Of a stretch of 9,491 nucleotides of DNA, positions 1,300-8,792 are shown in pieces (the stretch's first letter is position 1; every line of letters begins with the position of its first letter). A model generated the notes under the pieces. The model was not told the origin of the DNA. It did no database searches and saw nothing but the letters and a program-made list of their open reading frames with translations. The DNA is from a virus (Duplodnaviria > Heunggongvirae > Uroviricota > Caudoviricetes). The position numbers were made by a program, and so were the translations under genes. The stretch lies in the IMG/VR virus record IMGVR_UViG_2619619129_000006, one strand, 5' to 3'.

Positions 1300-2950
1300 C
1301 CAACTTCCGCTTCTTGCTCTTAGCGGACATTAGCATAGGCTATTTACCATAACGCCTCATTACGCGCACCGCCCAGACTGACTCAGCGCGTTTCTGGCAT
1401 ATCCCCGGTAAAACAAGTAACAAACCACCCGAAAATGAACACCAGAAACGCGACTTAAGAATCTACCCTATGAATGGATATGCACTCAACCGAATCGATC
1501 TTGGTTTCAATCTTTTTTATCGGGATCAGGCTTCTTTTTAGGTAACTTCGGGGGCTTAACTTGCTGATGACTTTGCGTTCGGCGCGTAAGCCAGGGATGG
1601 TCAGCTTTAGGTTTAACATAGTATTTTGAGCGTAAATCAATACGGGCATTATCCACTCGTTCATGGACACTCTTTTCATCATCCAGTGGTATAGGCTCCG
1701 GGCCATCAACATACTTTTCCCAGCCCAGCGCTTTCCCGTCATACAGAACGTTAATTTCACCGTCAAAGTTCTCGCATACAGTAACAACCGAATGCCTAAG
1801 TCGATATCCCCGGCCCTCACTGCGTACCTGAAACGCACTGCTTTTGTACTGGAAAGTGAGATTTTTAGACAGAACGCGCTTCGCCTGTAGGCTGAAGATA
1901 TAACCCAGTTCCTCTTCAGAATGGTGCACATCAAGATGAGCATTATCAGTAGTACGAGGCGACGTAGCGAACCGGTTGTTATAGGCTTCAATAAAGGTCG
2001 GCAACCATGCATTTGCTGTTTCAATATCACTGATATTCTGAAGCCGCATTTCTTTGACCAGCCTGTCCTGTAGTGTCTGATTGGCGCGCTCTACCCGCCC
2101 TTTTGCCTGCGGGCTGTTGGCATGGATTGGCTCGATGCCCAGTGTCTTTATCGCACGAGTGAACTGGGTCAGCTCACCTTCCCGCTCTGGGTTATTTACC
2201 CTGAATATACTGTGTCTATCAGAGTAGAGAGCGAGCGGTACGCCATGATCATTAAGGTAACCCCGGAGGGTTTCCATGTAAGCCCGGGTTGTTTCAGCAG
2301 GCACAAAACGCAACGCCATCAACGCACTGGTGGCATCATCAATGAAAACGATCAGTGTACATCTGGGGCCTCGATTTTCAAACCAGTCATGAGGTGAGCC
2401 ATCAATCTGGATCAGTTCACCGTAAGATGGTCGTCGCATGCGGCGTTGATATATACGGGCAATTTTACGACGGCGTTCACGCCATACCCCCCTCTTCTAT
2501 CATCCACTTTCTGAGAGTTTCAACGGATAAAGATAAACCGTGTATCTCGCGCAATTTTTCGCACGCAAACGTAGGTCCAAAATCAGCGTAACGGCCTTTG
2601 AGGAGTGAAATTACTGTTGCTCTGAATTCAGTAGAAAAGGAATTATTAGGACGCTTTCCACGTCGGTGGGAAACCAGACCAGAAGGCCCTTCATTTCTAT
2701 ACCGTTGCACCAGACGTTTAACCTGCCGAATAGAAATGCCAATGCGTGCCGCAGCTTGTTCCTGAGTAATATGTCGATTAATTGACTCCTGAATAATCTG
2801 AAGTCGGTGGAGTTCCTTATGACTCATCGTAACAGTTTCTTTGGTCATGAAAAATCCCCCAGAGAATTGTCTGGGGACATTTTAGAATGGTTCAAAGGGG
2901 ACATTACAGCTTGGTGTTAACAATAGCCTGCTTCTCCTTGCCTTTCGGCA
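1300..2950 (-). mobile_element. Insertion-sequence-like unit around the frameshifted DDE transposase; ends NOT determined
   Basis: A transposase gene flanked by non-coding DNA between flxA and the prophage early genes. I could not identify convincing terminal inverted repeats or a target-site duplication by eye; the coordinates are only a bracket. Confidence 0.35.
1507..2848 (-). pseudogene. IS481/ISNCY-like DDE transposase (N-terminal HTH + integrase-core domain), split by a frameshift in a G6 homopolymer
   Basis: Track ORFs 2477-2848 (123 aa, HTH-like: ...AARIGISIRQVKRLVQRY...) and 1507-2439 (310 aa, integrase core: IQIDGS...VFIDDAT...YSDRHSIF...SPQAKGRVER) are on the same strand in different frames. 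Hand translation shows the second frame is open back to a TAG at 2497-2499, just upstream of the run CCCCCC at 2487-2492 (+ coords). Removing one G would fuse them into one ~446-aa protein (...WMIEEGVWRERRRKIARIYQRRMRRPSYGELIQIDG...). Family assignment is by motif pattern only. Confidence 0.7.
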
Positions 2951-3182
2951 CGTAAGAGGCTAACCTACATGTGTCTGGCATGAAATTGGCCTCAGATTAA
3001 TGTTAAGCGTCTTGCAGGACGCGTAATGTTAACTGGGGCTTTTCTCTACCTGCCGTTGGTGTTCGTGCCCGAGGCAGATAGCCTCAAGCACCCGCAGTCA
3101 TTCTACTTAACTAAGATTTCCCCGCAAACCGTTTTTGTCCAGCACAGTAAATATCCAACTAAACCAATGGAGTTCGCTGTAT

Positions 3183-5330: not shown

Positions 5331-6296
5331 TTATCCTCTGAAACCAGGCGGAATTTCTGTATCCGGTTCAGAAATATGATTAACACAACGCTGTACAGGT
5401 GAACGTCCCAGGCGGATGACCAGTTCGTCCCATTTTTCGCGGAGCTTTGACGGGCTCATGATGTTTTTTACCCAGAATGGATCTCGCTGAACCCGACCAA
5501 ACATTTCGCAAATTTGTCTGTGGCTTCTGCCATCCAGCATCCGCATTGTGCGCACGTCATTGGCCCAGGCAGTCCAGTTAGGCTCTTTTGGTCGCATGAT
5601 CTCGCCATCATCACTGGCTGCCTGTTCGTAGAGACCCACGATCCGCCCCCAGATCCACTGCGCACACGCCAAATCCTCCCTGCTACCCCACTGGCGTTTT
5701 TTCGCACTAAACACAACCGCGTCGGAGTTCCGGGTTAAAAAATCCTGTTCAGTCGTCTGCGGGTCCGGTTGCGAAGCTTCCGGACGAAAAGTGTTTTTAT
5801 TCTCTGTAGTAATCTCTGTTGTATTCTCTGTAAGATCATCAGGCCATTTTGACCCGATGACATTGGGTCGTTTTGAATCAATGGAGCGTTTCATTTTGAC
5901 CTCTTCCATCGTGTCATTTTGACCTGATGGAGCGGCGCATTTTGAACCGATGGATTCGCTCAATTTGCCACCATCTAAAAGCTCGCTCCCATAGTTGATC
6001 GTGTAGAAATTGGTCATATCGCGCTTTGATTTATTGAGCTTTTCACAACGCAAAAGCCCCAGCGTTTTCAGACTTGCAAACGCGCGCTTTAACGTTGACT
6101 CTGACCAGAATGGGAACTGTTCCAGCCATTGTTCCGTTGTGTTATAAATCCAGCGAACACCATCACATTCCATGCCGGAGTTGGTATCTCTCAACCAGTA
6201 GTGCAGTTGTTGCAAAACAATGGCTTCGTTTAAGCCAATTTTCATTGCCAGCTGCGTGTTTATAACCAGTGGGCGTTCAGCAAAAAGAAGGCTCAT
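5331..6296 (-). CDS. Phage replication initiator, O-like (N-terminal HTH replisome-organiser domain, repeat-containing linker, conserved phage C-terminal domain)
   Basis: Track ORF 5331-6350 begins at a TTG; the first ATG is at 6296-6294 (MSLLFAERPLVINTQLAMKIGLNEAIVLQQLHYWL...), giving 321 aa. The linker-coding DNA carries the iteron array listed below, as in lambda O. Confidence 0.75.
   Translation of the reverse strand: MSLLFAERPLVINTQLAMKIGLNEAIVLQQLHYWLRDTNSGMECDGVRWIYNTTEQWLEQFPFWSESTLKRAFASLKTLGLLRCEKLNKSKRDMTNFYTINYGSELLDGGKLSESIGSKCAAPSGQNDTMEEVKMKRSIDSKRPNVIGSKWPDDLTENTTEITTENKNTFRPEASQPDPQTTEQDFLTRNSDAVVFSAKKRQWGSREDLACAQWIWGRIVGLYEQAASDDGEIMRPKEPNWTAWANDVRTMRMLDGRSHRQICEMFGRVQRDPFWVKNIMSPSKLREKWDELVIRLGRSPVQRCVNHISEPDTEIPPGFRG
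5790..5976. repeat. Putative phage replication origin: six ~23-bp phased iterons plus three tandem 12-13 bp repeats, inside the O-like gene
   Basis: Direct repeats of consensus CATTTTGACCNGATGG starting at 5845, 5869, 5892, 5915, 5938, 5961; adjacent tandem units containing TCTCTGT at 5801-5807, 5814-5820, 5826-5832. Confidence 0.65.
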
Positions 6297-6798
6297 AATT
6301 CCATCCAGCTTTTTGTTGGTATTGCTGTCGATACGCAAGCTTGAAAGCAATTGCTTTTTCTATAAGTTCGTCAGTTTCACGATCCACTACGGCAGGATCA
6401 GCAAAAAGCAGTCCGGACTCCACCACATCGCCATATTCTTTGTTTAACCCGGCGATCATGCACGTGATGCTTTTTCCGTCAGTAATTTCACGATACAACC
6501 TGAAATCACTAATCCGGATAGCCTCCATAATCGCAGGCACTAGCGCCGTGAACTTTTCACGCTTATCCCTGGTGTCGATAGCCTTCCAGCGTTCGAATAT
6601 CTTCACTCGATTAACACCAAGCGCTCGCTGATCAACCGCGCCACCTTCATCTGTGACACGCTGAACATCGATGTTCGGGCGCTCTTTCAAAGCCCAGAAT
6701 GCTTCAGTGATTAATATCGTCGCCTGCTCCTGTGTCATTCCTGGTCGACATATCCAGGCATCCAGAGCCTCACGAGCCTGTTCAGGAGTGATTTTCAT
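6277..6798 (-). CDS. Hypothetical protein at the cII position between the cro-like gene and the O-like gene (173 aa)
   Basis: Track ORF; ATG 6798-6796 preceded by a G-rich SD-like stretch; overlaps dicC by 17 nt and the O-like start by 20 nt. MKITPEQAREALDAWICRPGMTQEQATILITEAFWALKERPNIDVQRV... I suspect it is the intact form of the K-12 ydfX pseudogene but cannot confirm. Confidence 0.55.
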   Translation of the reverse strand: MKITPEQAREALDAWICRPGMTQEQATILITEAFWALKERPNIDVQRVTDEGGAVDQRALGVNRVKIFERWKAIDTRDKREKFTALVPAIMEAIRISDFRLYREITDGKSITCMIAGLNKEYGDVVESGLLFADPAVVDRETDELIEKAIAFKLAYRQQYQQKAGWNYEPSFC

Positions 6799-7009
6799 TG
6801 TTCAACCGCCCCGCCCGCTTCGTCTTACGATATTCATCATAAACTTTGGGATCATACTGAAGCTCCCCGCCAGATGCCTCCTGTAGACGCATCGCGCGAC
6901 CTTCAGGAACCAGTATCCCCCAAGCAGCAACACTTGCCAGCCTCACTCCTGCGGCATTGGCAAGCTTTGTTTTGCTGCCAAAAAAAGTAATTGCGTCAAC
7001 TTTAAGCAT
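6782..7009 (-). CDS. dicC: DicC, Cro-like repressor
   Basis: ATG at 7009-7007 (track ORF starts 3 nt upstream at a TTG); MLKVDAITFFGSKTKLANAAGVRLASVAAWGILVPEGRAMRLQEASGGELQYDPKVYDEYRKTKRAGRLNNENHS; ~76 aa, divergent from dicA, as in the K-12 Qin prophage. Confidence 0.85.
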   Translation of the reverse strand: MLKVDAITFFGSKTKLANAAGVRLASVAAWGILVPEGRAMRLQEASGGELQYDPKVYDEYRKTKRAGRLNNENHS

Positions 7010-7021
7010 CAAATCCCCCTC

Positions 7022-7041
7022 TTGTTAGACTTTTCTAACAT
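7022..7041. promoter_or_regulatory. Palindromic operator TTGTTAGA-cttt-TCTAACAt in the dicC/dicA intergenic region (putative DicA site)
   Basis: 8-bp arms with a 4-bp spacer; nearly identical to the palindrome at 7533-7552; lies just downstream of the predicted dicC promoter -10. Confidence 0.55.
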
Positions 7042-7067
7042 TATTGTGCGCGGGATACCTAAGTCAA
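7040..7067 (-). promoter_or_regulatory. Candidate sigma70 promoter for dicC (-35 TTGACT, 16-bp spacer, -10 AATAAT on the - strand)
   Basis: + strand AGTCAA at 7062-7067 and ATTATT at 7040-7045. Confidence 0.45.
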
Positions 7068-7089
7068 GAAAAATTAGAATTACCTAACT

Positions 7090-7497
7090 ATGGATACAAG
7101 AACCCTGGGCCAGCGAGTTCTGGCGCGACGAAAAGAATTACGCTTAACACAACGAGAAGCCGCGCGCCTCGCTGGAGTTGCTCACGTCACAATTTCACAA
7201 TGGGAAAGAGACGAAACCCAGCCAGTCGGAAAACGATTGTTTGCTTTAGCGGATGCTCTGAAGTGCTCACCTACATGGCTAATGTTTGGTGACGAAGACA
7301 AGGCACCAGTGCCTGCACAAGAACTTCATGTGGAAACAGAGCTAACTCCCAACCACAAAGAATTGATCGAATTATTCGATGCTCTTCCATCTTCCGAGCA
7401 GGAAGCCTTGCTGTCTGAAATGCGCGCAAGAGTAGAAAACTTCAACAAACTCTTCGAAGAAATGCTTAAAGCGCGTAAAAATAAATCAATAAAATAA
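7090..7497 (+). CDS. dicA: DicA, cI-like HTH repressor of the dicB operon (135 aa)
   Basis: Track ORF; MDTRTLGQRVLARRKELRLTQREAARLAGVAHVTISQWERDETQPVGKRLFALADALKCSPTWLMFGDEDK...; HTH_XRE-type N-terminus; length and context match DicA. Confidence 0.9.
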   Translation: MDTRTLGQRVLARRKELRLTQREAARLAGVAHVTISQWERDETQPVGKRLFALADALKCSPTWLMFGDEDKAPVPAQELHVETELTPNHKELIELFDALPSSEQEALLSEMRARVENFNKLFEEMLKARKNKSIK

Positions 7498-7532
7498 CAT
7501 TCTTTTCAAGTGATTAGTTGCGCCCACCCTTT

Positions 7533-7552
7533 TTGTTAGATCAATCTAACAA
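7533..7552. promoter_or_regulatory. Perfect palindromic operator TTGTTAGA-tcaa-TCTAACAA upstream of the ydfA-dicB operon promoter (putative DicA site)
   Basis: 8/8 complementary arms with a 4-bp spacer; same half-site as 7022-7041. Confidence 0.55.
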
Positions 7553-7559
7553 AAAACAC

Positions 7560-7588
7560 TTGCCTCTCATGTTAGGTTATTCTAAATT
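7560..7588 (+). promoter_or_regulatory. Candidate sigma70 promoter for the ydfABC-dicF-dicB operon (-35 TTGCCT, 17-bp spacer, -10 TAAATT)
   Basis: TTGCCT at 7560-7565 and TAAATT at 7583-7588; a weaker TGTTAG...CTAAAT element overlaps the spacer and -10. Confidence 0.4.
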
Positions 7589-7665
7589 ATTTTCCATCAA
7601 GACACCGCACGGTGTTCTCAGCAAACAGTTCCGCTACCCCGGCGTTAAGGGGAAATGAGGTCAGC

Positions 7666-7821
7666 ATGGATACTATCGATCTTGGCAACAACGAATCTCT
7701 GGTGTACGGCGTGTTTCCAAACCAGGACGGCACGTTCACCGCAATGACGTATACCAAAAGCAAAACGTTTAAAACCGAATCTGGAGCGCGTCGCTGGCTG
7801 GAAAGAAATTCAGGTGGGTGA
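7666..7821 (+). CDS. ydfA: YdfA (51 aa, unknown function)
   Basis: ATG 7666 preceded by GAGG at 7656-7659; MDTIDLGNNESLVYGVFPNQDGTFTAMTYTKSKTFKTESGARRWLERNSGG; TGA at 7819-7821. The track ORF 7612-7821 is the same frame from an upstream start. Confidence 0.8.
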   Translation: MDTIDLGNNESLVYGVFPNQDGTFTAMTYTKSKTFKTESGARRWLERNSGG

Positions 7822-8376: not shown

Positions 8377-8434
8377 TTTCTGGTGACGTTTGGCGGTATC
8401 AGTTTTACTCCGTGACTGCTCTGCCGCCCTTTTT
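8377..8434 (+). ncRNA. dicF: DicF small RNA (antisense regulator of ftsZ), including 3' U-tract
   Basis: TTTCTGGTGACGTTTGGCGGTATCAGTTTTACTCCGTGACTGCTCTGCCGCCC followed by TTTTT matches my memory of the 53-nt DicF sequence; position between ydfC and dicB matches K-12. Confidence 0.85.
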
Positions 8435-8603: not shown

Positions 8604-8792
8604 ATGAAAACGTTATTACCAAACGTTAATACGTCTGAAGGTTGTTTTGAAATTGGTGTCACTATCAGTAACCCTGTATTTACTGAAGATGCCATTAACA
8701 AGAGAAAACAAGAACGGGAGCTATTAAATAAAATATGCATTGTTTCAATGCTGGCTCGTTTACGTCTGATGCCAAAAGGATGTGCACAATGA
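8604..8792 (+). CDS. dicB: DicB, cell-division inhibitor (62 aa)
   Basis: ATG 8604 preceded by GAGGG; MKTLLPNVNTSEGCFEIGVTISNPVFTEDAINKRKQERELLNKICIVSMLARLRLMPKGCAQ. The track ORF 8499-8792 is the same frame from an upstream start. Confidence 0.9.
   Translation: MKTLLPNVNTSEGCFEIGVTISNPVFTEDAINKRKQERELLNKICIVSMLARLRLMPKGCAQ

Follow-up and report, generated by a model that had tools for sequence, protein, structure and literature searches.

Paired palindromes around a dicA-like gene in a Qin-locus prophage are probable operators of a P22-type immunity switch

The DNA analysed here (9,491 nucleotides, IMG/VR record IMGVR_UViG_2619619129_000006, hereafter the window) is a Qin-locus prophage of non-K-12 E. 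coli. In E. coli 07-4299 (NZ_CP027462.1), with which it shares 100% identity, it sits at the Qin prophage locus, flanked by relBE-flxA and rspB. K-12 Qin occupies the same chromosomal locus, and the gene order relBE...dicC, dicA, ydfABC, dicF, dicB, ydfD...rspB is common to both. A 951-bp region of the window, used as query, has a match with at least 80% coverage in 565 of 5,426 complete E. coli genomes, roughly one in ten. The features that concern us are collected in Table 1. A Cro-like and a repressor gene are divergently oriented, and beyond the repressor gene lies an operon in which ydfA is followed by ydfB, ydfC, the DicF RNA, dicB and ydfD. The genes of this operon match the Pfam families DUF1391, DicB and DUF1482.

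Table 1. Genes, predicted promoters and putative operators of the immunity region, in window coordinates.
Feature	Position	Strand	Details
dicC-like gene, Cro analogue	6782-7009	-	75 aa from the ATG at 7009; Pfam P22_Cro (PF14549), E 5e-12; RefSeq WP_000921596.1
Immunity cassette	about 6900-7590 (about 690 bp)		differs from K-12 Qin; delimited by 30-nt windows of a global alignment
Oc / OR1-slot operator (putative)	7022-7041		TTGTTAGA-CTTT-TCTAACAT; assigned by sequence and slot
Predicted dicC promoter, PR analogue	7040-7067	-	-35 TTGACT, 7067-7062; -10 AATAAT, 7045-7040
Om / OR2 slot	7046-7065		degenerate in the window allele
Oa / OR3-slot operator (putative)	7071-7090		AAATTAGA-ATTA-CCTAACTA; last base is the A of the dicA ATG
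dicA-like repressor gene	7090-7497	+	135 aa; Pfam HTH_3, E 1.5e-14
Distal dicBp operator, OL2 slot (putative)	7533-7552		TTGTTAGA-TCAA-TCTAACAA; perfect palindrome
Predicted ydfA-dicF-dicB promoter (dicBp), PL analogue	7560-7588	+	-35 TTGCCT, 7560-7565; 17-bp spacer; -10 TAAATT, 7583-7588
Proximal dicBp operator, OL1 slot (putative)	7569-7588		ATGTTAGG-TTAT-TCTAAATT in the 8-4-8 frame
ydfA	7666-7821	+	first gene of the operon read from dicBp; RefSeq annotation
DicF RNA	8378-8429		Rfam DicF, 76.7 bits
dicB	8604-8792

The repressor gene was named dicA when the sequence was first annotated. Its product is a DicA-type repressor, but the gene is not the K-12 dicA allele, as the two proteins are 57% identical; the window DicC is 86% identical to K-12 DicC. 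Residues 1-71 of the window DicA match the N-terminal DNA-binding domain of P22 c2 (1adr, 2r1j; E 1e-18), and a Pfam search finds no peptidase S24 domain. The window thereby has the regulator pair of a Qin-type locus, a short, non-cleavable DicA (HTH_3 only) and a Cro-like DicC.

The difference from K-12 is sharply bounded. Measured in 30-nt windows, identity to K-12 is 87-100% (mostly 100%) outside the region from about 6900 to 7590, and 37-83% inside it. This block consists of the N-terminal helix-turn-helix half of dicC, the OR-like region, dicA and the OL-like region as far as the dicBp -10, and its bounds enclose exactly the regulators and their candidate sites, including all four of the palindromes described below. 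Since the drop in identity is confined to this block, the dicC helix-turn-helix half, both operator regions and dicA must have been exchanged as one cassette, much as in the imm swaps of lambdoid phages.

Direct reading of the window places TTGTTAGACTTTTCTAACAT at 7022-7041 and TTGTTAGATCAATCTAACAA at 7533-7552. The first-pass annotation had described these as two near-identical palindromes that bracket dicA, and this is borne out: a search with the 20-mer, allowing up to three mismatches, finds these two sites and no others in the window, where 0.06 are expected, and none of 200 shuffled windows has two or more matches. The 7533-7552 palindrome is perfect, and an inverted-repeat search extends its arms to 12 nt (7530-7541 and 7544-7555). 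A degenerate third copy, TGTTAG-N6-CTAAAT, had also been reported; it is real, but lies at 7570-7587, one base away from the approximate 7571-7588 first given. All three copies in that count are therefore genuine, but a fourth, at 7071-7090, was missed. This site is a 23-nt inverted copy of the one at 7569-7588, with 83% complementarity. The core TTAG-N6-CTAA occurs four times in the 9,491 bases, every time in one of the two intergenic regions flanking dicA, against 0.08 expected, and none of 200 shuffles contains four. A scan of 15 kb of the same prophage finds no full motif beyond the sites in the window.

Could such a palindrome have arisen by chance, or be a common genomic repeat with no link to dicA? 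IMG/VR was scanned for exact copies of TTGTTAGA-N4-TCTAACA, which gave at least 120 stretches. Among the first 120 listed, 49 carry the match beside a DicA-family gene, and in those DicA-family loci whose sequence was inspected directly, its first base lies 68-69 nt before the ATG, which is the window's own slot. The other 71 are isolated copies in unrelated low-GC contigs (mean G+C 0.39) with no DicA-family gene nearby, and speak for chance. However, 68 of these 71 are single-copy, and a motif with 15 specified bases is expected to turn up by chance as isolated single copies when so large and AT-rich a collection is scanned, whereas the window holds two and four copies in place of the expected 0.06 and 0.08. 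The reading as chance or generic repeat is effectively refuted. Such a repeat was one of the outcomes that the first-pass annotation had named as overturning its proposal.

Further operators were sought in both regions. The Om slot was placed by sequence reading and by the slot spacing in K-12 and of P22 OR2. Neither the repeat search of the window nor the comparison of related loci finds a palindrome there; its right half CCTAAGTC (7058-7065), which overlaps the dicC promoter -35, is alone half-site-like, and the left arm is missing, unlike in K-12 Om. On the OL side no third site is recognisable; ahead of the distal dicBp site there is only a lone TTAG (7514-7517), and the sequence around it varies strongly. 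We therefore do not count a third operator on either side. In this respect the window, with two palindromes per side, differs from K-12 Qin, for which Bejar et al. (1988), as summarised by Ragunathan and Vanderpool (2023, PMC10448788), described three operator-like sequences per intergenic region.

The predicted dicC promoter is sigma-70-like, with 10 of 12 consensus matches in a consensus scan, and K-12, P22 and all alleles have kept the AGTCAA at its -35. Given the position of its -10, the 7022-7041 site overlaps the last 2 bp of that element and the expected transcription start. The ydfA-dicF-dicB promoter was placed by colinearity with K-12 ACTTGACC and with P22 PL, ACACTTGACC...TAAATT; at 8 of 12 consensus matches it was missed by the scan. 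The 7533-7552 site ends 7 bp before its -35. The 7569-7588 site lies between the -35 and the -10, spanning from the spacer to the -10, and its right arm is the -10 itself. This would explain why the arm looks degenerate, and yet is conserved in alleles of other specificity and in P22. The first-pass annotation had set the first palindrome just downstream of the dicC -10, the second just upstream of the ydfA-dicB -35 and the degenerate copy across the dicB-operon promoter, and all of these placements hold.

The fourth site includes a -10-like TAGAAT (7075-7080) and the start of the dicA ATG, and no Shine-Dalgarno sequence is found upstream of dicA. This suggests that the dicA mRNA is probably leaderless and that the site is the analogue of OR3. 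In K-12, dicA was reported to have no consensus promoter and its transcription to depend on Oc-bound DicA (Yun et al. 2012, PMC3441716), and Reg-Seq detected no active transcription start in the stretch that it mutagenised (PMC7567609).

The closest characterised relative is K-12 Qin, which has the same operator slots, spacing, promoters and arm TTGTTAG...CTAACA. In alignment, the 7022 site corresponds base for base to K-12 Oc, TTGTTAGTCATAACTAACAA (TTGTTAGT-CATA-ACTAACAA), the 7071 site to Oa (GATTTAGC-ATTA-GCTAACTA), the 7533 site to the distal dicBp site (ATGTTAGC-TATA-GCATACAA) and the 7569 site to the proximal one (ATGTTAGT-CATG-GCTAATCT). As in K-12 Qin, a 20-bp inverted repeat with TTGTTAG arms lies between the divergent dicC and dicA genes and overlaps the dicC promoter, and a second set of sites lies at the ydfA-dicF-dicB promoter. 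There are differences too: positions 8 and 13 are T and A in K-12 Oc but A and T in the window, and the distal dicBp site is degenerate in K-12 whereas its window counterpart is a perfect palindrome. The exact operator strings of the window allele were not found in the literature searched; of such strings, only K-12 Oc was found.

For K-12, functional data have been published. According to Yun et al. (2012, PMC3441716), Oc is occupied by DicA in vivo, binding is lost on a single A-to-C change, cloned Oc titrates DicA, and a drop in DicA raises dicC 700-fold. Published DicA binding thus falls on the sequence that aligns with the 7022 site, a comparison that the first-pass annotation had proposed. 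Reg-Seq likewise recovers a DicA site at K-12 dicC, and notes the DicA site at dicB as a low-evidence, unmapped entry in RegulonDB (PMC7567609). Deletion of dicA induces dicBp 22-fold, and induction in K-12 proceeds via the Rem antirepressor, not RecA (Ragunathan and Vanderpool 2023, PMC10448788). In the same in vivo assay that showed binding at Oc, Om and Oa were unbound by K-12 DicA (PMC3441716), and for this reason the window site at 7071-7090 may be no DicA site at all.

Comparative data provide an independent view of the sites. About 250 related loci were collected from GTDB genomes and IMG/VR, and their slots are fixed. Conservation was assessed in loci whose DicA begins helix 2 with T-Q-R and has the recognition helix (A/S)HV(T/S)(I/V)SQWE, giving 57 distinct flank pairs. 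Across these, the slot spacing is 49-50 bp between Oc and Oa and 35-37 bp between the distal and proximal dicBp sites; positions 1-7 and 14-19 of the palindrome hardly vary, and positions 9-12 do so freely. The arms of the 7022-type site are invariant in 57 distinct sequences, the 7533-type site has invariant arms and a variable centre in 39, and the 7071 and 7569 sites are nearly invariant within the window-type allele. These sites were picked by consensus, which favours arm conservation, a bias from which the MAFFT footprint and the best-palindrome search are free. The motif-free MAFFT alignment of window-type flanks places the variation in the palindrome centres and the non-operator flanks, and none in the arms.

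The best-palindrome search used no motif either: it took whichever palindrome was best in the Oc slot, whose position is fixed, and the loci were sorted by helix-turn-helix type. Counted as loci, not as independent lineages, the 86 with TQR and AHVTISQWE carry TTGTTAGA...YCTAACA in the slot, the 79 with SQA and AHVTISQWE carry (T/C)CCTTAGA-TTTT-CCTAAGGA, and the 83 with SQN and SGSSISLWE carry ATTGAG-TTTT-CTCAAT; the K-12 type (three loci) has TTGTTAGT and P22 (one locus) AATTAAAG. In other words, the half-site in the Oc slot changes with the helix-turn-helix type of the repressor. The pattern recurs in Citrobacter, Enterobacter, Rahnella and Symbiopectobacterium.

These results bear on whether the palindromes act as RNA instead of DNA. 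The 7533-7552 site begins 36 nt past the dicA stop codon, where a hairpin might terminate or stabilise the transcript at its 3′ end, and the 7022-7041 site might form a 5′ stem on the dicC mRNA. The plus strand of 7522-7563 folds at -9.6 kcal/mol (z -6.4 against shuffled sequence), and the dicC-strand copy, at -6.0 kcal/mol, also folds better than shuffled sequence. Folding as RNA is, however, a property of every DNA palindrome. These stems are A/U-rich, neither strand has a U-tract, and a terminator scan makes no call, so that an intrinsic (rho-independent) terminator, which has a G+C-rich stem and then a U-tract, was rejected. The arms are invariant where a conserved stem would covary, the motif recurs in promoter slots that have no common transcription context, and the half-site tracks the repressor helix-turn-helix. 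We consider an RNA role very improbable. The leader downstream of dicBp (7596-7660) is conserved, but its folding is no better than that of shuffled sequence (z -0.65).

A more serious question is which protein the sites serve. In a K-12 ChIP-seq study (2024 preprint, PMC11430063) the strongest DicC peaks fall on both sides of dicA, with the palindrome TT(A/C/T)G...C(G/A/T)AA, and DicC represses dicA 48- to 84-fold. As read from the sequences, this motif is the TTAG...CTAA core of the window sites. The palindromes might then be sites only or chiefly of the Cro-like DicC, with DicA binding elsewhere or through other contacts. The failure of K-12 DicA to occupy Oa and Om is in keeping with this, as is the finding that the inner cores at Oa and the proximal dicBp site are identical in the T-Q-R and S-Q-A groups, which have a common DicC helix-turn-helix but different DicA proteins. 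However, K-12 Oc has the same half-site and does bind DicA (PMC3441716), and dicBp is derepressed by deletion of dicA, not of dicC (PMC10448788). Moreover, at the Oc slot the outer bases go from TTG to CCC or TCC where helix 2 of DicA differs and the DicC helix-turn-helix is the same, so that they track DicA. Because the Oc outer bases follow DicA helix 2 and K-12 DicA binds Oc, we regard a role for DicC alone, or chiefly for DicC, as unlikely.

Instead, the sites are almost certainly common to DicA and the Cro-like DicC, judging from the K-12 data. The proposal in the first-pass annotation of a DicA-operator half-site is hence supported on four independent counts, namely orthology to K-12 Oc, colinearity with P22, footprint-like conservation and covariation with the helix-turn-helix. 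Its choice of DicA as the controller is supported too, but is incomplete, since the K-12 DicC ChIP-seq results (PMC11430063) point to DicC as a second user of the sites.

The contrast between the T-Q-R and S-Q-A groups deserves further comment. With the same AHVTISQWE helix and the same DicC helix-turn-helix, T-Q-R goes with TTGTTAG arms and S-Q-A with (T/C)CCTTAG arms. This hints that the two outermost bases may be read by residue 22 (Arg or Ala), which would create heteroimmunity. The shared cores at Oa and the proximal site suggest in turn that sites of the Oa type may in essence belong to DicC, in line with the report that K-12 DicA does not bind Oa (PMC3441716). It is a tentative idea, and we would sooner doubt than accept it, that the sites are divided between DicA and DicC more sharply than in lambda or P22 and that immunity specificity is set outside the recognition helix.

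Taken together, the four sites occur far beyond chance, are positionally orthologous to the K-12 and P22 operators, show footprint-like conservation and covary with the helix-turn-helix type. We conclude that the palindromes, arranged as an OR-like and an OL-like pair, very probably serve as operators for a bistable switch of the P22 type that belongs to a cryptic prophage at the Qin locus, a function that is transferred from K-12 (DicA 57% identical) and P22.

In the mechanism that we propose, a DicA dimer would bind the 8-4-8 palindrome, with its P22 c2-like helix-turn-helix reading the TTGTTAG/CTAACA arms and not the central 4 bp. At 7022-7041 it would cover the -10 and the start of the dicC promoter, turning off dicC and the replication genes behind it. 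DicA bound at the perfect distal site, 7533-7552, would help to fill the weaker proximal site at 7569-7588, probably cooperatively. Filling the proximal site would block RNA polymerase at dicBp, and DicF and DicB, which inhibit division, would stay silent together with YdfD, a lysis protein. The Cro-like DicC, for its part, would read the core TTAG-N6-CTAA common to the sites and, at 7071-7090, would cover the presumed dicA -10 and the ATG, shutting off dicA. Mutual repression by DicA and DicC could then give two stable states.

The sites would thus be DicA/DicC operators of a known kind, a long-known P22-like arrangement in a previously uncharacterised immunity variant. The dicC-dicA-dicBp arrangement has already been described for K-12 (Bejar et al. 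1988, in the summary of PMC10448788), and as the architecture has been known since 1986-1988 we claim no new principle. What is added is incremental: the fourth site, the perfect distal dicBp palindrome, the boundaries of the cassette, and a hint that the outer bases are set by the residue following Gln in helix 2 (Arg or Ala). The sites matter for their proposed role, the silencing of two division inhibitors, DicB and DicF, and of a lysis protein, YdfD. With sites known for the window allele, results on the regulation of K-12 Qin may be transferred to many non-K-12 strains. The three or four immunity types also form a natural panel for studying how a P22 c2-like helix-turn-helix changes its specificity.

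The whole region is colinear with P22 immC, in its OR1-3 and OL1-2 slots and both promoters, and the match is base for base around the PR -35, at the end of OR3 and at PL. The window sites at 7022, 7071, 7569 and 7533 correspond to OR1, OR3, OL1 and OL2, respectively, and P22 shares with the window the 8-4-8 palindrome geometry, the Cro family and the homologous N-terminal domain of c2. P22 OR1 (AATTAAAG-AACA-CTTAAATT) falls in the Oc slot, OR2 in the Om slot next to a PR -35, AGTCAAG, conserved between P22 and the window, and OR3 (ATTTAAG-ATGA-CTTAACTATG) in the Oa slot, where the window has CCTAACTATG. P22 PL, followed by an OL1 that ends in TAAATT, aligns with window ACACTTGCC...TCTAAATT. 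Specificity is another matter. The half-site is AATTTAAG in P22 and TTGTTAGA in the window, with T4, T5 and A6 alone common among the eight positions in a hand alignment, and given these half-sites the two would be heteroimmune. The window DicA is also not a RecA-cleavable S24 repressor: it has 135 aa against 216 for c2, and its short C-terminal half is unrelated to that of c2 and lacks the self-cleavage domain. Furthermore, the OR2 slot is degenerate in the window, unlike P22 OR2, and so cooperative activation in the style of P22 or lambda cannot simply be assumed.

The resemblance to lambda is one of logic. The 17-bp lambda operators have no sequence relationship to the window sites, and lambda has three sites per side where the window has two good ones. 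Operators are spaced 23-24 bp apart in lambda, centre to centre, compared with 49 and 36 bp in the window. In the lambda CI/Cro system, too, the genes for repressor and Cro diverge, the leftward early promoter has a second set of operators, the switch is bistable, and the repressor mRNA is leaderless, as is probably true of the window dicA.

Compared with K-12 Qin, identity in the window falls to 37-83% inside 6900-7590 and stands at 87-100% (mostly 100%) on either side. The left edge of this divergent block lies within dicC, the gene of the Cro-like protein, and the right edge just past the -10 of dicBp, the promoter of the ydfA-dicF-dicB operon. From the sequence comparison, the block looks like the exchange of an immunity cassette in a prophage locus that is otherwise identical.

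In the S-Q-A alleles of related loci, named for the residues that begin helix 2 of DicA (T-Q-R in the window), the operator position at the dicC promoter (Oc) holds (T/C)CCTTAGA-TTTT-CCTAAGGA (L004, L005, L012 and IMG/VR L110-L189). The recognition helix, AHVTISQWE, and the DicC helix-turn-helix are identical between these alleles and the window, and it may be that parts of the repressor other than the recognition helix determine its specificity for the outer bases of the operator. A DicA-family variant of 128-129 aa carries TWILYGDE in place of TW(L/I)(L/M)FGDE (L277, L279, L305, L306, L310, L312, L337 and L353), with the T-Q-R / AHVTISQWE helix-turn-helix unchanged. At these loci TTGTTAGA-TTTG/TTTT-TCTAACAA begins exactly 69 nt upstream of the repressor ATG, and is followed by AATTTAGAAT(A/T)ATCTAACTATG.

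A tandem array with the same arms occurs on an AT-rich IMG/VR contig (L276, 37% G+C), where four near-identical copies of ATGTTAGAG-TAG/TAA-TCTAACAA and one partial copy occupy 2125-2230 with a repeat step of ~23 bp. A DicA-like gene was not found near this array, which may have nothing to do with the dicA operators beyond sharing their arms, and may consist of iterons or of operators of another kind.

The dicBp leader (7596-7660, CATCAAGACACCGCACGGTGTTCTCAGCAAACAGTTCCGCTACCCCGGCGTTAAGGGG) is nearly invariant in all immunity types. Two small inverted repeats lie within it, one ACACCG..CGGTGT and the other CCCC..GGGG, and similar hairpins are found in other genera. The leader might serve as a nut-like element or as a processing element; its fold is no more stable than that of shuffled sequence (z -0.65).

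Elsewhere in the prophage, a sok antitoxin RNA was matched, which implies that a hok/sok module is present. Unlike K-12 Qin, in which ydfX is a fragment, the window keeps an intact YdaT-family gene, a 339-aa ORF and a DUF977 gene; its prophage is the less decayed of the two in the region 5331-6798.

Other prophage features in the window
Feature	Coordinates	Strand	Remarks
Interrupted IS element	1507-2848	-	Adjoins sok; RefSeq: ISEsa1-family transposase pseudogene with helix-turn-helix ORF
sok antitoxin RNA	2922-3093	-	Rfam RF01794, 99.8 bits; upstream in prophage
339-aa ORF	5331-6350	-	Behind dicC; without Pfam match
YdaT-family gene, intact	6277-6798	-	Behind dicC

At the start of dicA (7071-7092) a Shine-Dalgarno sequence is absent, and a -10-like TAGAAT lies at 7075-7080, 9 nt ahead of the ATG. 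Because this CTAACTATG arrangement is kept in K-12 and in c2, the repressor gene of phage P22, it suggests that the dicA mRNA is leaderless, as is the lambda cI transcript from PRM.
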